A DNA stretch of 64,000 nucleotides from an uncultured Acidimicrobiaceae bacterium. Its GTDB lineage: Bacteria; Actinomycetota; Acidimicrobiia; Acidimicrobiales; RAAP-2. A program made the position numbers and the translations under genes. Position 1 is the stretch's first letter, and each line of letters begins with the position of its first letter. Shown piece after piece: positions 7,055-57,731 of this stretch. Below the pieces are notes generated by a model. The model was not told the origin of the DNA and searched no databases. It worked only from the letters and a program-made list of their open reading frames with translations. Location of the stretch: positions 135,465 to 199,464 of the forward strand of contig CAWBQX010000006.1 in the NCBI GenBank assembly GCA_963791015.1. Reading direction: 5' to 3'.

Positions 7055-8431
7055 CTAGGAACTTTTGTCGACAAGGGCGCGCACGATGTGCGTGAAGTCA
7101 GCCGAACGCTCTTCCCAGTTTCGATACAGGTCGAAACTGGGTGCAGCCGGCGAGAGCAACACGACGCCACCCTGGCTCAACGAGGCGCGCGCCAGATGCA
7201 CCGCCTCGTCCATGGAGGTCGCGGCGTGCTGGGTGACGTCGTGACAGTGCTGGGTCACGGCGTCGCTGATTCGCAGGCCCGCGTTCCCGATGGTGATGAG
7301 AGTCGTGTCGCGCTCTCGCGCGCACAGCGCGGCCGCGAGTTCTGAATAGTCCACCCCGCGGTCAAAGCCACCTGCGATGAGGGCAAGCGGTTCGTCGCGA
7401 AAGACGTCCAACGCCGCCAGGGTCGGTAACACCGAGGTGGCAAGTCCGTCGTCGACGTAGCGCACGGTCGTGCCGTCACTGCGCTCGTGAGCGACGAGCG
7501 TGAGGCGGCCCGAGAGCGGTTCGAACTCACTCGCGCGAACGCGTACGCGCTCGCGAAGCGCAGACTCGTCGGTGCCGGTGAGGATGGCGACCGCGGCGAG
7601 GGCGAGGGCCACGTTGGAGTCGTTGTGTTCGCCGATGAGCCCGAGCGCGCTCGCCAGGTGCGTCACGTCACTCGCGACGTAGATCAGTTCGCCACCGATC
7701 TCGCTTTCGTGTTCGTGCAGGGTCGGCGAATCGGCCACCAGGGTGCGGTGTACCCCCGCAGCGCGGGTGAGTGAGAGCTTGTCGCGGCGGTACTGCTCGA
7801 GTGAGCCGTGCCAGTCGATGTGGTCCTCGCCCAGTGACGTCACCACCACCACGCGCGGCGCCACATCCAGATCGACGATCTGGAAGCTGGAGACCTCGAG
7901 CACGAGCCAGCCACTCGACGTGTCGACCGCGGGATCGTAGGGCGCGCGACCGATGTTGCCCAGGCGCTGCGCCGTTTCGCCGAGGCAGGTGAGAAAGAAG
8001 GTGATCAGCGCAGTCGTCGTCGACTTGCCCTTGGTCCCGGTGATGGCGACGACGCGTTCCAGGTCGACGTCATGGAGCCAGAGGTTCAACGCGGACGTGA
8101 CGCTCACGCCGTAGTCCTCCAGTTCGAGGACGTCGGCACGGCGACGGGGAATACCCGGACTCTTCAGCACCACCTCGCACGTGAACAGTGCTTCGAGACC
8201 GCCGTGGTCGGTGACGAGCACGTCGTCGCCCAATCCCTCGACGTCGTCGACGATCACCAACTCGGCCGTGCCGCGTAGCAAGTCCACCGCGGCGCGACCT
8301 TCGATGCCGTAGCCGAAGATTCCGACGCGCCTCCCGGCGAGATCAGCGAAGCCAGTGGGCTGGAACACGATCCGTCCCTTGCGGTTCGAGGAGCTCGTCG
8401 AAGCTACGTGATGGTGAGGTGTCGCGGGCAA
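7055..8431 (-). CDS. Mur ligase, MurD paralogue (candidate MurD2, UDP-MurNAc-L-Ala:Glu ligase)
   Basis: Rossmann-like N-terminus VGIFGYGIEGRA, Mur ligase P-loop ITGTKGKSTTT, MurD-like length. Alternative GTG start at 8368. Overlaps the upstream gene; no dcw genes (mraY/ftsW) adjacent. Confidence 0.75.
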   Translation of the reverse strand: MPATPHHHVASTSSSNRKGRIVFQPTGFADLAGRRVGIFGYGIEGRAAVDLLRGTAELVIVDDVEGLGDDVLVTDHGGLEALFTCEVVLKSPGIPRRRADVLELEDYGVSVTSALNLWLHDVDLERVVAITGTKGKSTTTALITFFLTCLGETAQRLGNIGRAPYDPAVDTSSGWLVLEVSSFQIVDLDVAPRVVVVTSLGEDHIDWHGSLEQYRRDKLSLTRAAGVHRTLVADSPTLHEHESEIGGELIYVASDVTHLASALGLIGEHNDSNVALALAAVAILTGTDESALRERVRVRASEFEPLSGRLTLVAHERSDGTTVRYVDDGLATSVLPTLAALDVFRDEPLALIAGGFDRGVDYSELAAALCARERDTTLITIGNAGLRISDAVTQHCHDVTQHAATSMDEAVHLARASLSQGGVVLLSPAAPSFDLYRNWEERSADFTHIVRALVDKSS

Positions 8432-9656
8432 TCTCGACGAGTCGCGGCACGTCGCGCCACTCGTCCATGTGGCAGACCTTGCTCAAGGCGACCGCGCTCT
8501 CGTCGGGGTCGCCGACGCACTCGAAGGGTTTGGCCTCGGCGCCGAGTCCCACTAGTACGCGCAACTGTTCGTCGCGCGCGGTATCGCTCAGTGGTTCGTG
8601 GCCGAAGATCCCTCGCAACGTTCCGCGCGACATGTGCGGCGCCAGAACCAAGTTGATGAACAGACACTTATCGCACGTACCGCACCACGAGCTTTCGCGC
8701 TGGTCGACGCTCTGGCGAAAGGCCCGGTTGCAACTGCGAAAAACGTGATGATACGCGGGCAGTTGACTGAAGACCTGGGCGACCCAGATCTCGCTACGCG
8801 CGCGCAGGAAGCTCGCCACCGTGAGGTGATCGCCCAGTCGCTCGTTGAGCGCGTCGCCGATGAGGACTTCGGCGGCGAGGGACTTGCTCCACTGGTGATT
8901 GACTTCAAGGCCAGACCACTCAAGGTTGGGTATCGAGGCCGAGTGCTCGTTGCTCATTACCACGCCGCCGCGACCTGAGGCCACTGCCGCGATGGCGCAC
9001 AGCAAAGTGATCATCCCCGTCACCGGGACGTGGCCGTGGAAAAAGGAGTCCCCGCCGGTCAGGAGTTGGCTATCAAGGTGGCGGGTGGCGCGCACAATCG
9101 GTCGCCCGGTTTGAGCGGCGGTCGCTTCGAGCGGCGCGAAGCGACCAGTCGAGGGACTCACGATGAAGAGCGATGTGTCGAGGTCGGGAGAGAGCGACTC
9201 CACGGTCACCACCGAGTCAATGCCGCCGCCAAAAGGAACGAGGACGCGTTTTGTGTCGAGGCTAACCAGGGTCTCGGTGATCGGGCCACCCCCGTCGATC
9301 GTGACGTCATCTAGGGGCAGATCGTTGTGATAGGAGAACTCGCCGAGGCCGTCTCGCAGGGCCGCCTCCAGCAGGCGACGTCCGGCGACGCCGAGCGGTG
9401 TCGAGCCGACGTCGATGCGCCGGGCGGCGCCGGTCTTGTAGTACGAGAGACCCGCCAGGAGGAACCACAGTTCGGCCACCGAGCGAACGGCGGGCGTGTT
9501 CAGGGTGGCGACGCCTTCAAACTCCACCGTTTCGGTAAAGACTCGTCCGTCCATCTCGTAGGTGCCCTGCACCGTCGTCTCGTCAAGATCAAGTCCGACG
9601 TAGCGGAACAACTCGGCTCGCCGTGGAGTAATCGTCTCGCTCATCGCCGACCTCAT
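8343..9656 (-). CDS. MurL-like protein (candidate UDP-MurNAc-L-Ala-L-Glu epimerase); otherwise a conserved hypothetical PP-loop-like protein
   Basis: ATG at 9656 forms an ATGA overlap with the pgeF stop (alternative ATG 9644). FGGGIDS resembles the SGGxDS PP-loop; C-terminal CGTCDKC motif; coupled to the MurD paralogue. Family assignment is from memory and context only. Confidence 0.55.
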   Translation of the reverse strand: MRSAMSETITPRRAELFRYVGLDLDETTVQGTYEMDGRVFTETVEFEGVATLNTPAVRSVAELWFLLAGLSYYKTGAARRIDVGSTPLGVAGRRLLEAALRDGLGEFSYHNDLPLDDVTIDGGGPITETLVSLDTKRVLVPFGGGIDSVVTVESLSPDLDTSLFIVSPSTGRFAPLEATAAQTGRPIVRATRHLDSQLLTGGDSFFHGHVPVTGMITLLCAIAAVASGRGGVVMSNEHSASIPNLEWSGLEVNHQWSKSLAAEVLIGDALNERLGDHLTVASFLRARSEIWVAQVFSQLPAYHHVFRSCNRAFRQSVDQRESSWCGTCDKCLFINLVLAPHMSRGTLRGIFGHEPLSDTARDEQLRVLVGLGAEAKPFECVGDPDESAVALSKVCHMDEWRDVPRLVEIARDTSPSRSFDELLEPQGTDRVPAHWLR

Positions 9657-10417
9657 GCTACGGCTCGCTTCGCCACCACGGAGAAGCGTCCGCACGGTCG
9701 TTGTGCGCGATCGCTAAAGAACACCGCACCGCCGTCAGTGACCTCGCGGCTCAGCGCGATGCGGTCCTCCGCGACTCCGGCATCGATGAGTTGACGAGTG
9801 GCGACGAGGCGCAGATCAAGACGAGACCGATCCCCGCCATCGGCGAACACGGCGCCGTCAATATGGGCAAACGCCTCGGCGACCTCGGGACCAACCTGGT
9901 AGCTCTCCCTCGATATCGATGGCCCAATAAATACGTGGGCATCGGTCGGTGAGAGCTCGTCGAGTGTGCGCGCGATCACTCCGGCCGCCAGTCCGCGCCA
10001 GCCCGCGTGCACGACCGCGACCCTTCCGGACGACTCATCGGCGAGGACCAGGGGAACACAGTCCGCGACCAACATGGCGATCGCGAGTGAGGGGTCCCCG
10101 CTCACCAGGGCGTCGGCTTCGTCACCCGCCGACGCATGCTCGGCATCGAGAACGCGGTCGCCGTGCACTTGACGGACCGTGACGAAGCGGTCGAGCTCGA
10201 CGCCGGCGGCTCGGGCCACTCGCCAGCGGTTCTCACTCACGTGATCTGGTCGGTCGCCGACGTGTTCGCCGAGATTGAGCGAGTCGAAGGGTCCCGAACT
10301 GACGCCGCCAAAGCGGTCCGTGACGAACGCGTCGACACCGATCGCGGCGAGGTTCTGCGCGGGATAGACCGTGAGTGTCCCACGCTGCTCGGCGATGAGG
10401 ACTAGTTCTCGTGGCAC
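9653..10417 (-). CDS. pgeF: peptidoglycan editing factor / YfiH (DUF152) family protein
   Basis: FVTDRFGGVS...NLG, VADCVPLVL, VVHAGWRGL motifs of the YfiH/PgeF family. Confidence 0.8.
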   Translation of the reverse strand: MPRELVLIAEQRGTLTVYPAQNLAAIGVDAFVTDRFGGVSSGPFDSLNLGEHVGDRPDHVSENRWRVARAAGVELDRFVTVRQVHGDRVLDAEHASAGDEADALVSGDPSLAIAMLVADCVPLVLADESSGRVAVVHAGWRGLAAGVIARTLDELSPTDAHVFIGPSISRESYQVGPEVAEAFAHIDGAVFADGGDRSRLDLRLVATRQLIDAGVAEDRIALSREVTDGGAVFFSDRAQRPCGRFSVVAKRAVA

Positions 10418-35629: not shown

Positions 35630-35686
35630 TAAGACTCCGGGAGAATCTTGACTAAATAGTGTCAGGAGTTGCTTGACACATTTCTG

Positions 35687-36916
35687 TTATTGATTCTGCC
35701 GCTTGCGGTGCGGTTCTGCTCGCTTCTTTCTCACCTCCTTCGTATTGGTCCTCGGAATGGACTTGATGAGCTCGGCGCCGTCCCAGACCTGGAGCAGGGT
35801 CGGTAGCACCCGCACGTCGACCAGGTGGCCGCTGCGCATCTTGCCGACGCTGAACATCTGATTCGCGATCGAGATCACCCCGTTGATCGAGACGGTGCGA
35901 CTCACCCAGTCGTCACCACTGCGATCCTCGTTGAAGGTGTGCAGATCGAGGGGCGGTGTCGGAACCTTCGAGCGGGCGCCGTAGAAGCGCTCGGCGGGGG
36001 TGGCCATCTTCAGACTCTGGTGGGGTCGGCGCAGGTTGTAGTCCTCGATCCACTCGTCGAGCTCGCCTTGGGCCCGTTCCAGGGACGAAAACGTGCGGTC
36101 CATCAGAAACTCGTGGCGCAGGGTGCGGTGGAATCGCTCGATCTTGCCCGTCGTCGTGGGATGGCCCGGTGCCGTCAAGCGATGCACGATGCCATTGTCA
36201 CGACAGATCCGGTCAAAGAGCACTTCACTCGGCGTGAGCCCGAAGCGATTGGTGAAGACCTTGCCATTATCAGTCAGTATCTCTTCGGGCACGCCGTGCT
36301 TTTCGAGTGCGGCCGCAAAGTGCCCGCAGACCTGGCGAGCGATTGCTCGGGTCATGATGCCCGCGCACACAATGAAGCGTGAGTAGTCGTCGATGCCGTC
36401 GATGATCTTGCACTCGGTGCCGTCGTCGAGCAGCAGCCCGCCGACGACGTCCATCTGCCACAGTTCCATAGCTCTTCCTCTTTCCCATCGTTTGTAAGTT
36501 GGTAGCTTTTTGCGCTTCGCGCGCTCTTCAATGAGCCCACTTCGCACCAGTGCGCGATAGATCGCCGACAGCGACGGCAGCGGTTCGAGGTGTTCTCGTT
36601 CCAGCTGGTGGCGGATGTGCATCTGTCCCCAGCTCGGGTGATGACGGCGCAACTCCAGCACGCGGGCTTCGGCTGTGGCCGGCATCTGAGTGGGTGACAC
36701 GCGGGGACGATGTGACTGCTCGGCCAGTGCCTCGAGTCCGCCCTCTTCGTATCGTTTGAGCCAAAGATGGACCGCCTGGCGGCTCACGCCGAACTTTTGG
36801 GCCACTTCGGTGACGCTGAAACCGTCTCTCAAGACGCCTAAGACGGCGTCATAACGTTGTTCCATTTTGCTTGACTCCCACAGCATTGGGGCCACCTCCT
36901 GCTCAGGAAAGAGCAA
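35687..36916 (-). CDS. IS481-family transposase (HTH plus rve integrase core)
   Basis: HTH VTEVAQKFGVSRQAVHLWLKRY; catalytic-core motifs WQMDV, IDDYSR, LTDNGKVF, TTGKIERFHRTL, YNLRRPHQSL. More likely start is ATG 36865 (MEQRYDAV). Confidence 0.85.
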   Translation of the reverse strand: MLFPEQEVAPMLWESSKMEQRYDAVLGVLRDGFSVTEVAQKFGVSRQAVHLWLKRYEEGGLEALAEQSHRPRVSPTQMPATAEARVLELRRHHPSWGQMHIRHQLEREHLEPLPSLSAIYRALVRSGLIEERAKRKKLPTYKRWERGRAMELWQMDVVGGLLLDDGTECKIIDGIDDYSRFIVCAGIMTRAIARQVCGHFAAALEKHGVPEEILTDNGKVFTNRFGLTPSEVLFDRICRDNGIVHRLTAPGHPTTTGKIERFHRTLRHEFLMDRTFSSLERAQGELDEWIEDYNLRRPHQSLKMATPAERFYGARSKVPTPPLDLHTFNEDRSGDDWVSRTVSINGVISIANQMFSVGKMRSGHLVDVRVLPTLLQVWDGAELIKSIPRTNTKEVRKKRAEPHRKRQNQ

Positions 36917-36947
36917 AGGACAGTGGCGGCTTAGGTGTCAAGCAACT

Positions 36948-37030
36948 CCCGAAACTGTGTCAAGGATCAGCCGGAGTTGTGTAAAGCATCACCCGAAACT
37001 GTTTCGACAAGGATCAGTCGGATGTTTACA
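36948..37030. repeat. tandem duplication (2 units of about 44 bp) of the IS right-terminal repeat unit
   Basis: CCCGAAACTGTGTCAAGGATCAGCCGGAGTTGTGTAAAGCATCA followed by CCCGAAACTGTTTCGACAAGGATCAGTCGGATGTTTACA, about 80 percent identical by eye. Confidence 0.7.
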
Positions 37031-37047
37031 GGACCTCAGAGCCGGTG
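37031..37047. repeat. right copy of the direct repeat; overlaps the 3' end of tRNA-Thr(TGT)
   Basis: Same 17-mer as 35613..35629. Positions 37040-37047 are the discriminator plus the last 7 nt of the tRNA acceptor stem (minus strand). Confidence 0.8.
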
Positions 37048-37111
37048 GAGGGATTCGAACCCACGACCTGACGATTACAAATCGCCTGCGCTACCACTGC
37101 GCCACACCGGC
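37040..37111 (-). tRNA. tRNA-Thr (anticodon TGT), no encoded CCA
   Basis: Reverse complement folds: acceptor GCCGGTG/CACCGGC, D stem GCGC/GCGC, anticodon stem GGCGA/TCGTC with loop TTTGTAA, T loop TTCGAAT. The T stem GTGGG/CCCTC has one U-U mismatch. Confidence 0.8.
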
Positions 37112-38449: not shown

Positions 38450-38517
38450 GTGTCGAGGCTAAAGTGCCGATCGCTCAATTTGACACGCACGCCTTCTGTG
38501 GTCCAAAATGAATTCGA

Positions 38518-38617
38518 TCATCAAGAGCGACTGAGGGACGGCCCCGTCGACGTCGCGACAACCAGTGTGAGCCCAGGGATTTTCCCTTCACACCAGGTGC
38601 CAAAGGCCGAACGATGA
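38518..38617 (+). promoter_or_regulatory. SAM riboswitch, SAM-I clan (S-box-like core; P4 short or absent, so possibly SAM-IV or I/IV subtype)
   Basis: UCAUC-AAGAG-GCGAC-UGAGGGA-CGGCCC-..GUCGC-GACAACC-[P3 GUGUGA..UCACAC]-AGGUGCCAAAGGCC..-GAUGA. P1 UCAUC/GAUGA and P2 GCGAC/GUCGC pair perfectly; conserved GAGGGA, GGCCC, CAACC, GGUGCCAA blocks; 10 nt upstream of the ATG. Confidence 0.8.
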
Positions 38618-38627
38618 AAGGGAAGTC

Positions 38628-39875
38628 ATGAGTTTCGCTACCGGTCTCATCTGTCGAGAGTGTGGATTTGCCTATCCGACTGAGGCGCGCTACGTGTGCG
38701 ACCTCTGTTTCGGGCCCCTCGAGGTCGCCTACGACCTGGACGCCGCCCGCGGCGCAGTGACTCGAAAATCCATTGAAGCGGGGCCAACTTCCATCTGGCG
38801 CTACGCCGATCTGCTGCCCGATCCCGGTGAGGCACCGGTCGATCTGGGCGCGGGCTGGACGCCCCTGCGACGCGCGACTCGCCTCGGGGAGATTTTGGGC
38901 TTGAAGGAACTGTGGTTGAAGGACGACACGCGCAATCCCACCGGGTCATTCAAGGACCGCGTCGTGTCGGTCGCTCTCTCGACGGCGCGCCGGCTCGGGT
39001 TTACGACCGCGGCGTGCGCCTCTACGGGCAACCTCGCCACCTCGGTGGCCGCCCACGCGGCCGCCATCGGCTGGCCGAGCGTGACGATCATTCCGTCGGA
39101 CCTCGAGAAGTCCAAGATCGCGATGGCAGCCATCTTTGGCGGCACCGTGCTCGGCGTTGAGGGCAACTACGACGACGTGAATCGGCTGTGCGTGGAGCTG
39201 CTCGACGAACACCCCGACTGGGCCTTCGCCAACATCAACCTTCGCCCGTACTACGCCGAAGGTTCCAAGACGCTGGCCTTTGAGATCGCCGAACAACTCG
39301 GATGGACACTGCCCGAGCAGGTCATCGCCCCGCTTGCCTCAGGCAGTCAGTTCACCAAGATCGTCAAAGGTTTTCGCCAGTTCATCGACCTCGAACTCGT
39401 AGAGGGCGATGCGCCCAAGATGTTCGGGGCCCAGGCCACGGGCTGTTCGCCCATCGCGACGGCATTTTCGACCAACGCCGAGTACATCACTCCCCAACGC
39501 CCCTCCACGATTGCCCGTTCGCTCGCGATCGGTAATCCGGCCGACGGGCTCTATGTGCTGGATGAACTTCGTCGTGGTGGTGGGGACTGCGGATCGGTCA
39601 CCGACGAGGAGATCCTCGAGTGCATCGGTCTTCTCGCGCGCACCGAGGGCGTGTTCGCCGAGACCGCGGGCGGCGTGACGATCGCTTCGTTACGCCAGCT
39701 CATCGAGAAGGGTTCCATCGACACCGAGAAATCGGTCGTGGCCGTCATCTCGGGTCACGGCCTCAAGACGCTGGACGCCATCTCGGGTCGAGCAGACGTC
39801 ACAGCGACGATTAGTCCCTCCTTGGCCTCGGCCGAGACTGCGCTCGCCGAGCACTTCTTGGTGGGTGCCTCGTGA
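38628..39875 (+). CDS. threonine-synthase-family PLP enzyme with N-terminal zinc ribbon (MetM-like candidate homocysteine synthase)
   Basis: CRECGF..CDLCFGPLEV zinc ribbon; PLP-lysine region NPTGSFKDR; fold-type II core; preceded by a SAM riboswitch and followed by a GG-terminated sulfur carrier. Confidence 0.75.
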   Translation: MSFATGLICRECGFAYPTEARYVCDLCFGPLEVAYDLDAARGAVTRKSIEAGPTSIWRYADLLPDPGEAPVDLGAGWTPLRRATRLGEILGLKELWLKDDTRNPTGSFKDRVVSVALSTARRLGFTTAACASTGNLATSVAAHAAAIGWPSVTIIPSDLEKSKIAMAAIFGGTVLGVEGNYDDVNRLCVELLDEHPDWAFANINLRPYYAEGSKTLAFEIAEQLGWTLPEQVIAPLASGSQFTKIVKGFRQFIDLELVEGDAPKMFGAQATGCSPIATAFSTNAEYITPQRPSTIARSLAIGNPADGLYVLDELRRGGGDCGSVTDEEILECIGLLARTEGVFAETAGGVTIASLRQLIEKGSIDTEKSVVAVISGHGLKTLDAISGRADVTATISPSLASAETALAEHFLVGAS

Positions 39876-40147
39876 GCGTCATCGTGCGAGTGCCGGGCCA
39901 GCTGCGGGTCCTTGTGGGCGGCGTGGGCGAGATTCCCGTCGAAGCGAGCACCGTACGTGAGGCGATCGGAGCCGTCGAAGTGATTCACCCCGGTCTCTCT
40001 GAGCGGGTCCTGGACGAGAACGGATCGCTGCGGCGATTTGTCAACATTTTCGTGGCTGACGAGGACATCCGGTTCCTCGACGGGCTGGACACCGTGGTCG
40101 CCGAAGGCGAGATCGTCTCCCTGGTCCCCGCGGTCGCCGGAGGGTGA
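39872..40147 (+). CDS. MoaD/ThiS-family sulfur-carrier protein (MetO/CysO-like)
   Basis: 91 aa, GTGA overlap with the upstream stop, beta-grasp size, C-terminus ..LVPAVAGG (diglycine). Confidence 0.75.
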   Translation: MSVIVRVPGQLRVLVGGVGEIPVEASTVREAIGAVEVIHPGLSERVLDENGSLRRFVNIFVADEDIRFLDGLDTVVAEGEIVSLVPAVAGG

Positions 40148-40151
40148 CCCG

Positions 40152-40178
40152 TTAGCACTCTCGGTAAGAGACTGCTAA
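40152..40178. promoter_or_regulatory. CIRCE operator (HrcA binding site)
   Basis: TTAGCACTC-N9-GACTGCTAA versus consensus TTAGCACTC-N9-GAGTGCTAA (one mismatch), 48 nt upstream of groEL. Confidence 0.8.
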
Positions 40179-40213
40179 TATTGCTTTGCACCAAAAAGGT
40201 GCAGACGCACTAG

Positions 40214-41848
<1,635 letters not shown>

Positions 41849-50025: not shown

Positions 50026-51429
50026 ATGCGCTACCCCGACATGGACGTCGCTGCCAGCCCGCTCGAGTTGATTGGCCACACCCCGATGGTTCGCCTCGGC
50101 ATTCTGGGGCGCGACATCGCCTGCGACGTCTTGGCCAAAATGGAGACCACCAACCCCGGCGGGAGCTCCAAGGATCGCCCGGCGCTGTCGATGATCCTGG
50201 CCGCCGAACACGACGGGCTGCTGCAGCCCGGCTACACGATCATCGAACCCACGAGTGGTAACACCGGGGTGGGTCTCGCCATCGTCGCCGCCCAGCGCGG
50301 ATACAAATGCATCTTTGTGATGAGCGACAAGATGGCGCCAGAGAAGATTGACGTGCTGCGCGCCTACGGCGCCGAGGTCGTCGTGTGTCCCACGGCCGTT
50401 GCCCCCGAGGACCCCGACTCGTACTACTCAACCGCCGAACGGCTCACCAAAGAGACCCCGAACTCGTTTCGCCCCGACCAATACTCGAATCCAAACAATC
50501 CGCTCGCGCACTACCAGACGACCGGTCCCGAGATCTGGGAACAGACCAACGGGCACGTCACCCACTTCGTGGCCGGCGCGGGTACCGGCGGGACGCTCAC
50601 CGGGGTTGCGCGCTATCTCAAGGAGCGCAACCCTGCGATCCGCGTGATCGCGGCCGACCCCCAAGGTTCGGTCTACTCAGGGGGTGCCGGGCGCCCCTAT
50701 CTGACCGAGGGCGTGGGTGAGGATTTCTGGCCCGAGAACTACGACCCCGCCCTGATCGATGAGGTCATCGCGGTGAGTGACGCCGACGCGTTCGCGATGG
50801 CACGAGAAATGACCCAGCGCGAGGGACTCTTAATTGGCGGCTCGGGCGGCACCGCAGTGGCGGCCGCCCTGCGGGTGGCGCGTGGCCTGAGCGATACGGA
50901 CGTCGTGGTTGTACTCATCCCCGACTCGGGACGGGGCTATCTCTCCAAGGTCTTCAACGACACCTGGATGACGGACTTCGGGTTCTTGCGCCCCCACAAC
51001 GAGATGGACGTGGGTGATGTGCTCGCCGACAAGATCGAACGCCAGGAGAGTTCTCTCGCCGACCTCGTTCTCGTGACGGAAGAGACACTGGTGCGCGACG
51101 CGATCTCGCTGATGCGCGAGAAAGACGTGTCGCAGTTGCTCGTCACGGTCACCGACGAACTGCCACTGGCCGCGAAGGAAGTCTCGGGTTCGCTCAGTGA
51201 GCTCGGACTTCTCGAGGCGACCACGCGCGATGAGTCCGTGTTGGACCTTCGCGTGAAGGACATCGCCGACCCCACGTTGCCCATGGTGGGCGTGGGGATG
51301 AGCGTGAAGGAACTCACCGGTCGCCTGGCCACCACGGCCGGGGTGCTGGTCCTGGATGGGGGACACCCGGTCGGCGTGCTCACGCGCAGCGACTTGCTCA
51401 GCTACCTCGAGCGAAGGAGATCGTCATGA
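50026..51429 (+). CDS. cbs: cystathionine beta-synthase (PLP fold-type II plus tandem CBS domains)
   Basis: NPGGSSKDRPA PLP-lysine motif, GTGGTLTG, C-terminal CBS pair; followed by a gamma-lyase gene. Confidence 0.85.
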   Translation: MRYPDMDVAASPLELIGHTPMVRLGILGRDIACDVLAKMETTNPGGSSKDRPALSMILAAEHDGLLQPGYTIIEPTSGNTGVGLAIVAAQRGYKCIFVMSDKMAPEKIDVLRAYGAEVVVCPTAVAPEDPDSYYSTAERLTKETPNSFRPDQYSNPNNPLAHYQTTGPEIWEQTNGHVTHFVAGAGTGGTLTGVARYLKERNPAIRVIAADPQGSVYSGGAGRPYLTEGVGEDFWPENYDPALIDEVIAVSDADAFAMAREMTQREGLLIGGSGGTAVAAALRVARGLSDTDVVVVLIPDSGRGYLSKVFNDTWMTDFGFLRPHNEMDVGDVLADKIERQESSLADLVLVTEETLVRDAISLMREKDVSQLLVTVTDELPLAAKEVSGSLSELGLLEATTRDESVLDLRVKDIADPTLPMVGVGMSVKELTGRLATTAGVLVLDGGHPVGVLTRSDLLSYLERRRSS

Positions 51430-52559
51430 AGGGTTTCAACACGCGTGCGATTCACGTGGGGTCCGATCCGGATCCATCGACCGGCGCGGTGAACCCTCCC
51501 GTTTACCTCACTTCGACCTACGCCCAGGACGGCGTGGGTGTGATTCGCTTCTCGGACTACGCGCGCGGCGACAACCCGACCCGGGCGGCCCTCGAAACCT
51601 GTCTGGCGAACCTCGAGGACGCGCAGTTCGGCGTGGCCTTCGCGTCGGGCCTGGCCGGGGAAGACGCACTGCTGCGCACGCTGGCGCCGGGTGACCACGT
51701 GATCATGGGCATCGACGCCTACGGCGGGACGTATCGACTGCTCACTCGCGTCTTTGGGGCCTGGGGGATCAGTGTGTCCACCGTGGACCTGAGCGACAGC
51801 GACGCCATCGAGTCGGCGTTTACAGCCACCACCAAGATGATCTGGGTCGAGACGCCAAGTAATCCGATGCTGAGTGTGGTCTCGATCGAGGCGCTGGCTT
51901 CTCACGCGCACTCCCACGACGCCCTGCTCGTGGTCGACAACACTTTCGCTACGCCGTACTTGCAGCGTCCGCTCAATCTGGGCGCCGACGTGGTGGTGCA
52001 CTCGACGACCAAGTACATCGGCGGTCACTCCGACGTGATCGGGGGATTCGTCGCGACGAACAACGAGGACGTGGCGACCAAGTTGAAGTTCCATCAGTAC
52101 GCGATCGGTGCCGTACCCGGACCGCTCGACTGCTATCTGCTCCTGCGAGGAATCAAGACGCTCGGGGTGAGGATGGATCGGCACTGCGAGAACGCGCGCG
52201 CCATCGTCGACTTTCTCGTGCAGCACGAAGCAGTCGAGGACGTCTATTACCCGGGCCTCGCCGGACACCCGGGCCACGAAGTAGCGCGCACCCAGATGCG
52301 CGACTTCGGCGGCATGATCAGTTTCACCGTGCGCGGCGGCAGTGACGTCGCGCGCAAGGTCTGTGAGTCCACAAGTGTGTTCATCCTCGCCGAGTCATTG
52401 GGCGGCGTGGAGAGCCTGATCGAGTTGCCCTCGGTCATGACCCATCTGTCGACCGCGGGCTCGACGCTCGAACCCCCGGACAACCTGGTGCGAATCAGCG
52501 TGGGTCTCGAAGACCTTGACGATCTGTTGGAAGATTTGGCGAACGCGCTCGCGCTTTAG
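51426..52559 (+). CDS. cystathionine gamma-lyase / gamma-synthase family (Cys/Met metabolism PLP enzyme)
   Basis: ATGA overlap with cbs; [16 protein letters not shown]-lysine motif; about 377 aa. Confidence 0.85.
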
Positions 52560-56793: not shown

Positions 56794-56945
56794 GACGGCC
56801 AGGCTAATGAGTGAAACAAGGGGCTCCGAGCGCTCTGGCTACCGGGGTGAGGCAAGTATTCACAGGAATATCCAAGCGATTCCTGAGAAGAACTCACCAC
56901 GATCTTAGGCACTTCTCTAAAGAATTGGCAAAGACGTCGTTTACG

Positions 56946-57731
56946 ATGGCAGACGTGACTTTGACCCTGCCTCAGCGAAGTTCCAAGCCCCGTACCGGTG
57001 GCCTCACGATGATCATCGACAAGGGTGCGCCCACCCGACAGTTCGAAGATCTCATTGACAGCCATAGCGCGCATATCGACTTCGTCAAGTTCGGGTGGGG
57101 TACGTCGGTCGTGACTACCAACTTTTCTGACAAGCTCGACATCCTGAAAAACGCAGGCGTGGACTTCTACTTGGGCGGAACGCTGTTTGAGAAGTACGTG
57201 CAACAGCACCGCTTTGAGGAGTTCCGCGATCTGTGCGTCGGCTACGGCTGCAGCTTCGTCGAAGTGTCCAACGGCACGATCGACATCAGCAATGACGACA
57301 AGGCCGAGTACGTCAAGCGGCTCTCGGACGACTTCTTCGTGATCTCCGAGGTGGGTTCGAAGGACCAAGAGGCGTCTGACCTGATGGCACCCCATAAATG
57401 GGTGAGTTTTATCAACGCGGACATCGAGGCCGGGGCAGTTCTGGTCACCCTGGAGACTCGCGAGGGCGGTAAGGGTGGCATCTGCCGATCCAACGGCGAG
57501 CTGCGGTATGGCCTCATCGAGGAGATCCTGTCCGCCAAGATCGACTACGGCAAACTTCTTTTCGAGGCCCCCTCGACCGAGCTGCAGACGTACTTTGTGC
57601 GCCGGATCGGTCCCGACGTTAACCTCGGCAACATCGCAATCACCGACGTCATTCCCTTGGAGACCATTCGCCTCGGCCTGCGTAGCGAGACGCTGCTTGA
57701 CTTTGAACCTGGCTCTGCCGACGACTTCTAG
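56946..57731 (+). CDS. comA: (2R)-phospho-3-sulfolactate synthase (ComA family)
   Basis: ATG 56946; LPQRSSKPRTGGLTMIIDKG, IDFVKFGWGTS, YLGGTLFE, FVEVSNGTI, ISEVGSKD match the ComA family along the full length. Confidence 0.8.
   Translation: MADVTLTLPQRSSKPRTGGLTMIIDKGAPTRQFEDLIDSHSAHIDFVKFGWGTSVVTTNFSDKLDILKNAGVDFYLGGTLFEKYVQQHRFEEFRDLCVGYGCSFVEVSNGTIDISNDDKAEYVKRLSDDFFVISEVGSKDQEASDLMAPHKWVSFINADIEAGAVLVTLETREGGKGGICRSNGELRYGLIEEILSAKIDYGKLLFEAPSTELQTYFVRRIGPDVNLGNIAITDVIPLETIRLGLRSETLLDFEPGSADDF

Follow-up and report, generated by a model that had tools for sequence, protein, structure and literature searches.

We describe a two-gene operon with a riboswitch leader in a 64,000-nt stretch of DNA (hereafter the window; 63% G+C) from an uncultured Acidimicrobiaceae bacterium (GCA_963791015.1, contig CAWBQX010000006.1, positions 135,465-199,464 of the forward strand). 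The operon pairs a protein of the threonine synthase (ThrC) family with a small sulfur carrier, and in our judgement it is very probably a metM-metO operon of the methionine branch, repressed by S-adenosylmethionine (SAM), whose products would make homocysteine. The leader holds an aptamer with covarying helices, the gene pair is conserved, the enzyme stands apart from true ThrC proteins and the carrier is a homologue of CysO. The pair is most likely a member of the MetM/MetO kind that was already described in Streptomyces in 2024, though it is mislabelled in databases.

The closest public relatives of the window are uncultured Acidimicrobiaceae genomes of soil and peat origin. In the best of these (CAWIZQ010000008.1, locus L001) the enzyme is 97% identical in protein sequence to that of the window and the collinear DNA is 91% identical. 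The gene pair was counted over 81 related Acidimicrobiaceae loci, the leader alignment comprised 74 distinct sequences, and 20 related loci were scanned with Rfam. Enzyme and carrier genes, joined by a 4-nt ATGA/GTGA overlap, were present at all 81 loci, and a match to RF00162 was found at the same place, its end about 7 nt short of the start codon, at all 20 of those scanned.

A SAM-I-type aptamer in the leader

Using cmscan, we found a SAM-I-type aptamer at 38515-38620 on the forward strand (RF00162, 49.3 bits against a gathering threshold of 44.4, E 2.7e-8). It is the sole riboswitch across the 64 kb, and RF00162 is the best-scoring model of the SAM clan for this leader. P1 is formed by UCAUC (38518-38522) paired with GAUGA (38613-38617), and exactly 10 nt separate its 3' end from the ATG at 38628. 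The remaining parts are P2a/P2b with an internal loop, P3, and a pseudoknot that pairs the P2b loop (CGGC) with J3/4 (GCCG). At the related loci the scores for the same model ranged from 47.8 to 64.2 bits.

Covariation was assessed with a hand-written structure of 29 pairs (P1, P2a, P2b, P3 and the P2-loop/J3-4 pseudoknot) laid over the 74 distinct leaders. Of 2145 cells, 96% were paired; double-sided changes occurred at six pairs, and compensatory changes were observed in P2a and P3. The diagnostic and most telling pair, in the pseudoknot, was G-C in 42 leaders, C-G in 32 and unpaired in none. The observed pairing or covariation was matched by 0 of 500 shuffles, and slid controls reached 25-37%. 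The core nucleotides were invariant or near-invariant over the same leaders. Since the helices covary and the core hardly varies, the aptamer fold is evidently under purifying selection.

The preliminary description of this stretch had proposed a well-formed SAM-I-clan aptamer 10 nt before the gene, to be checked with the RF00162 covariance model. The model match, the spacing and the covariation bear this out, and only the completeness of the fold has to be corrected, as there is no P4 helix: its columns are deleted in the cmscan alignment of the window, and in 74/74 leaders only 3 nt lie between the pseudoknot strand and the 3' strand of P1. P1 itself is just 4-5 bp long. The missing P4, a score only about 5 bits over gathering and the short P1 would all suit a degenerate or repurposed SAM-I relic, which without P4 would bind no SAM or would answer to another ligand, the operon being regulated in some other way. 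We consider this very improbable in view of the near-invariant core and the covarying helices. In addition, a SAM-I aptamer that does contain P4 (68.7 bits) occupies the same position before the orthologous enzyme gene of Nonomuraea gerenzanensis, and SAM-IV riboswitches, which lack P4 but have a P5 hairpin and one more pseudoknot downstream of P1, bind SAM through the same core (PMC6890682). For the window leader we accordingly favour a functional aptamer, with SAM as its predicted ligand. It has P1, the P2a/P2b internal loop, P3, the P2-loop/J3-4 pseudoknot and the core nucleotides in common with SAM-I, and the lack of P4 in the junction in common with SAM-IV. It differs from the latter in having no P5 hairpin; there is no space for P5 or the second pseudoknot because the Shine-Dalgarno (SD) region and the AUG directly follow P1.

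The enzyme and its sulfur carrier

The first gene (38628-39875, forward strand) encodes a MetM-like fold-type II pyridoxal phosphate (PLP) enzyme of the ThrC family, 415 residues long, which we predict to be a thiocarboxylate-dependent homocysteine synthase. It matches Pfam PALP (2e-68), contains the catalytic-lysine motif SFKDR and bears an N-terminal four-cysteine zinc-ribbon motif (CxxC...CxxC, residues 9-27). The second gene (39872-40147, forward strand) encodes a MetO/CysO-like sulfur carrier of 91 residues; its GTG start overlaps the TGA of the enzyme gene (ctcGTGAgc) and its C-terminus reads ...PAVAGG. Both proteins are thus as the preliminary description had them, namely a ThrC-family PLP enzyme with an N-terminal zinc ribbon, coupled by a GTGA overlap to a 91-residue MoaD/ThiS-like protein ending in AGG. 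Its further expectations, that the small open reading frame (ORF) would have a beta-grasp fold and that the enzyme would not group with true threonine synthases, also held, as set out below.

The carrier matches Pfam ThiS PF02597 (4e-11, 43.8 bits against a cut-off of 22.5) and NCBIfam SAMP1 (4e-14). Its best solved relative is CysO of Mycobacterium tuberculosis (3dwg_C, solved with CysM; E 7e-18), and the alignment spans the full length of both proteins (3dwg_C residues 1-93 against carrier residues 1-91), with the ...PAVAGG tail common to the two. The second-best solved relative is the ThiS/MoaD protein 4n6e_B, a CysO-type carrier used by BexX (1.2e-16). Judged by this homology, the protein is a sulfur carrier with a beta-grasp fold. 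CysM receives its sulfur from CysO, which donates it as a thiocarboxylate (PMC12910592). The carrier gene ends in GG* at 76 of the 81 loci and in GGC* or GGCA* at the other five (L022, L031, L033, L039 and L053), where a JAMM hydrolase of the Mec type must presumably trim the carrier.

For the enzyme, threonine synthase (EC 4.2.3.1) is the obvious alternative. On this explanation a genuine ThrC would stand behind a SAM riboswitch and balance the threonine and methionine branches at O-phosphohomoserine, and the small ORF would be an unrelated MoaD/ThiS protein. The fold family and the catalytic lysine motif are indeed those of ThrC, every named database relative of the enzyme is labelled 'threonine synthase', and the enzyme passes the NCBI thrC model TIGR00260 (266 bits against a cut-off of 167). 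The nearest solved structures are true ThrC proteins (E ~1e-50), none being closer. However, the enzyme falls below the cut-off of every narrower PRK threonine-synthase equivalog, the best being NF006050 (276 against 303). In a joint alignment it is 34-37% identical to the ThrC proteins of M. tuberculosis, Bacillus subtilis (36%), Thermus thermophilus, Aquifex aeolicus and Nonomuraea (the thrB-linked protein), whereas these five are 56-65% identical to one another. Its identity to the riboswitch- and carrier-linked protein of N. gerenzanensis is 55%.

A homologue search over 1.84 billion cluster representatives (50% clusters) returned dozens of full-length relatives at 39-55% identity, which share six motifs with the window enzyme. 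Where true ThrC proteins have SFKDRGM, STGNTS, NSVNPYRLEGQKT, PVGNAGN, AIRIGNPASW and EPASAA, the riboswitch-linked clade has SFKDRVV, STGNLA, N-LRPYYAEGSKT, P[ILM]ASGS[QL] (PLASGSQ), SLAIGNPADG and ETAGGV, respectively. These positions are invariant in true ThrC proteins and surround the cofactor and substrate sites. Neither equivalog similarity nor conserved motifs thus place the enzyme in EC 4.2.3.1, and by these sequence measures its clade is separate from housekeeping ThrC. The zinc ribbon was considered as a marker of the clade and rejected, since representatives that bear true-ThrC motifs can have it too. Zinc-ribbon ThrC-like proteins of Haloprofundus and Chlorohelix (34-39% identity) have no carrier neighbour and were therefore not taken to belong to the same system.

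The gene context points the same way. Translational coupling to a CysO-type carrier at all 81 loci is not what one would expect of a genuine threonine synthase with an unrelated neighbour. In N. gerenzanensis a SAM-I riboswitch, the ThrC-like gene, the gene for a 91-residue carrier ending in ...PAVAGG and groEL follow one another in the order seen in the window, and a canonical thrC-thrB pair is present elsewhere in the genome. (The Nonomuraea record, NZ_LT559118.1, is listed in PLSDB as 'plasmid I' and has 10 annotated features; its length of 11.85 Mb shows that it is evidently the chromosome of the organism, so that this collection of plasmids offers a complete actinomycete genome.) Known regulatory logic would also be contradicted by a SAM OFF-switch on threonine synthesis; in plants, SAM activates ThrC. 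Taken with the identities and the substituted motifs, this makes a genuine threonine synthase highly unlikely, and a MetM-type enzyme remains our reading. We take the gene order of SCO4293-SCO4296 in Streptomyces coelicolor to be that of the window and Nonomuraea as well. In that organism SCO4293 ('thrC') and SCO4294 are co-regulated with sulfate-assimilation genes (PMC2267785).

The close relationship of the carrier to CysO and to the BexX-associated carrier (4n6e) raises another explanation, namely a CysM/CysO-like system that uses another acceptor or makes another thiol, for example cysteine from O-phosphoserine, or a sulfur metabolite other than homocysteine. Some cysteine and sulfur-assimilation genes are likewise under the control of SAM-I riboswitches, which would suit such a system. 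Nevertheless, the enzyme belongs to the ThrC family and not to CysK/CysM, the cysM and cysK models matching it only at 1e-8 to 1e-11. A pair of genes nearby (described below) already provides a route from homocysteine to cysteine, and the published enzyme of the same architecture uses O-phosphohomoserine (GapMind 2026 preprint; bioRxiv 2026.09.15.751699). We hold this explanation to be improbable, and homocysteine is the product that we predict.

Putative promoter, ribosome-binding site and proposed mode of control

A putative promoter, TTGACA-18 nt-CAAAAT, lies at 38480-38509 on the forward strand (10/12 matches; one such site, where shuffles lead one to expect 0.2). Transcription from it would begin at about 38516, level with the 5' strand of P1, and relatives retain a -10-like AGAAT/ACAAT block at the equivalent place. 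The SD region (AAGGGAAG, 38618-38625, forward strand), the presumed regulated element, adjoins the 3' end of P1 and leaves 2 nt to the ATG. It is conserved among the 74 leaders as AAAGGGAG/AAGGGAA, and it begins directly after P1 in the window and within about 3 nt of P1 in the relatives.

No terminator was found in the leader between the aptamer and the start codon, nor is there room for one, so control presumably acts on the initiation of translation. With a transcript that would begin at P1 and an SD region right behind it, the SAM-bound fold, with P1 locked, most likely blocks the loading of ribosomes at the adjacent SD sequence. In Nonomuraea the SD sequence (GAGGGAAGG) and the 3' strand of P1 even overlap, which fits the same logic of translational control.

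Other elements of the leader were considered. A pseudoknot of the SAM-IV kind between the P3 loop and the SD region can be drawn in the window (UUCCCUU/AAGGGAA, 7 bp), but many relatives (such as L046, L049, L060 and L067) have lost it, and we discarded it as a conserved element. We also rejected a hairpin of the P4/P5 kind in the first codons, as variants of the SD region are uncompensated downstream. Minimum-free-energy folds of the leader gave inconsistent alternatives and nothing reliable on the OFF state. In the distal part of P3 (38574-38590; alignment columns 69-87) a 4-nt bulge on the 5' side and a short hairpin cap are retained, and 60 of the 74 leaders have an unpaired ACC or CCC in the bulge or loop although the stems vary. 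This element might make contact with the GGG of the ribosome-binding site (RBS). About 66 of the 74 leaders have AGT (Ser) as their second codon, and the first codons (38631-38639) are AT-rich, as against about 80% G+C at third positions in the genome; this probably keeps the initiation region unstructured.

Neighbouring genes

A CIRCE element, the HrcA operator (TTAGCACTC-N9-GACTGCTAA, 1 mismatch, 0 expected by chance), was located at 40152-40178 on the forward strand before groEL. It starts 5 nt past the stop codon of the carrier gene, and CIRCE and groEL together occupy 40152-41848. Lying between the carrier gene and groEL, the element confines the operon to two genes and does not itself belong to the system. 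Among the scanned ORFs of the window we found no hom, thrB, other thrC or metX/Y.

About 10 kb downstream, at 50026-52559, the gene for a cystathionine beta-synthase (CBS; 467 residues, TIGR01137, 550 bits against 510) overlaps that for a PRK07811-type cystathionine gamma-synthase/lyase (377 residues, 593 bits against 513). These are the counterparts of Rv1077/Rv1079 of M. tuberculosis. They form a reverse-transsulfuration pair, which could route the homocysteine made by MetM/MetO to cysteine.

Three further observations concern the rest of the window. A sulfur-related protein resembling phosphosulfolactate synthase (ComA) is encoded at 56811-57731; with TIGR03849 it scores 226 bits and does not reach the cut-off of 280. 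At 35630-37030, next to a tRNA gene (37040-37111), an IS481-family transposase gene (35687-36916, reverse strand) lies within an insertion of some 1.4 kb that is absent from the closest relative (L001), which is otherwise collinear. At 7055-9695 on the reverse strand, murD is followed by the gene for a MurL-like protein, whose NF041275 score (266 bits) falls far short of the cut-off of 700; this hints at the route to peptidoglycan D-Glu known from Xanthomonas, in which L-Glu is added and then epimerised.

Proposed pathway and significance

A ThrC homologue, MetM, and a carrier, MetO, of Streptomyces albulus make homocysteine from O-phospho-L-homoserine, and a SAM riboswitch lies upstream of metM (Hasebe et al. 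2024, Appl Environ Microbiol 90:e01247-24, as reported in PMC12172450). According to the GapMind 2026 preprint, the pathway depends on MoeZ and Mec as well, and the name threonine synthase is often wrongly given to MetM. The preliminary description had cited this Streptomyces precedent, which is documented in the two sources just named, and had concluded that the pair is a protein-thiocarboxylate-dependent homocysteine synthase and not ThrC. Aptamer, enzyme clade, carrier homology and literature together argue for that conclusion. It had also remarked that no E1-like activator or JAMM protease is adjacent, and our scan of the window ORFs agrees with it.

Several points weigh against this assignment. 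With no MoeZ/ThiF-type E1, Mec/JAMM protease, thrB or hom among the scanned ORFs of the window, the supply of both substrate and activated carrier is assumed. The enzyme is accepted by TIGR00260, the aptamer is without P4 and its binding of SAM is a prediction, and the role given to the enzyme and its Acidimicrobiia homologues is read from sequence. Orthology to MetM of S. albulus is argued from the shared architecture and the Nonomuraea intermediate; the top 120 homologues obtained with the Nonomuraea protein as query were all from Streptosporangiaceae, and the contig scan yielded Acidimicrobiaceae only. Finally, a Microcystis homologue (51.6% identical to MetM, with no riboswitch) did not act as a full MetM in vivo and had threonine-related activities (PMC12172450).

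If the assignment is correct, the system may work as follows. A MoeZ-like E1/rhodanese encoded outside the window would convert the C-terminus of the carrier to a thiocarboxylate. The MetM-type enzyme would bind O-phospho-L-homoserine and eliminate phosphate as threonine synthase does, after which, as in the published MetM reaction, the thiocarboxylate of the carrier would attack C-gamma in place of water. The adduct would then give free L-homocysteine and regenerated carrier, probably with the help of a JAMM hydrolase of the Mec type whose gene lies elsewhere; to judge from CysM/CysO/Mec, such a hydrolase is probably needed for release of the product and not just for trimming of the carrier. 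Homocysteine would go on to methionine and SAM, and also to cysteine by way of CBS and cystathionine gamma-lyase. When abundant, SAM would bind the leader and lock the short P1, and the overlapping start and stop codons would couple synthesis of the carrier to that of the enzyme.

We also offer a tentative and rather doubtful proposal, that the leader represents an undescribed subclass of the SAM-I clan. Such a leader would hold a naturally small aptamer of about 100 nt with three helices (P1, P2 and P3) and the pseudoknot, without P4 or the P5 and second pseudoknot of SAM-IV, with its transcript start at P1, its RBS abutting P1 and a conserved unpaired ACC/CCC in distal P3 that perhaps touches the RBS. 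Linked to it is the suggestion that in these bacteria sulfur enters amino acids mainly through the homocysteine of MetM/MetO and passes from there to cysteine by the CBS/cystathionine-lyase pair.

Because the relatives are labelled 'threonine synthase' and the thrC model accepts the enzyme, metabolic reconstructions of the abundant Acidimicrobiaceae of soil and peat will miss this methionine route and may count a false threonine synthase. The riboswitch, the translationally coupled CysO-like carrier and the six motifs together provide a signature for re-annotation. The pathway described in Streptomyces in 2024 extends, on this assignment, to a second actinobacterial class, and the aptamer without P4 and with an abutting RBS offers a compact natural model for a minimal SAM-I scaffold. 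These findings confirm and extend current understanding and do not change it; the new points, namely the aptamer without P4, the RBS abutting P1 and the CBS/cystathionine-lyase pair 10 kb downstream, are minor ones.

Comparison with known systems

The closest counterpart is MetM/MetO of S. albulus, as far as it is described in PMC12172450. In both, a ThrC homologue is encoded beside a carrier gene, a SAM riboswitch is present and the enzyme bears the label 'threonine synthase'; the distance to B. subtilis ThrC is similar as well, with 33% identity for MetM (bioRxiv 2026.09.15.751699) and 36% here. The window differs in coming from Acidimicrobiia and not Actinomycetes and in having an aptamer without P4, and the likeness is one of architecture, not of direct alignment. 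Set against the S. albulus system as reported there, a further difference is that the carrier of the Acidimicrobiaceae already ends in Gly-Gly in most genomes.

With CysM/CysO/Mec/MoeZ of M. tuberculosis (3DWG; PMC12910592) the window system has in common a protein-thiocarboxylate donor, the PAVAGG tail and a fold-type II PLP enzyme that acts, or in our case would act, on an O-phospho amino acid. The window enzyme is of the ThrC family and not the CysK/CysM family, and its acceptor is presumably O-phosphohomoserine instead of O-phosphoserine. In the window, moreover, mec and the E1 gene are not clustered with the pair, and a SAM riboswitch would provide the control.

Short-class threonine synthases (1UIM of T. 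thermophilus, 2D1F of M. tuberculosis, 6CGQ of B. subtilis and 2ZSJ of A. aeolicus) resemble the window enzyme in fold family, in the SFKDR motif and probably in substrate and phosphate elimination. The window enzyme is set apart from them by its 34-37% identity, an extra zinc-ribbon N-terminus of 55 residues, the six substituted motifs, and a linkage to a sulfur carrier instead of thrB/hom. A further system, HcyS/HcyF/HcyD/MetY of Wolinella succinogenes, which Krishnamoorthy and Begley are said to have described in 2011, reportedly also makes homocysteine from a protein thiocarboxylate; its PLP enzyme is reportedly an O-acetylhomoserine sulfhydrylase of the MetY type, and its E1 and JAMM genes are said to be clustered.

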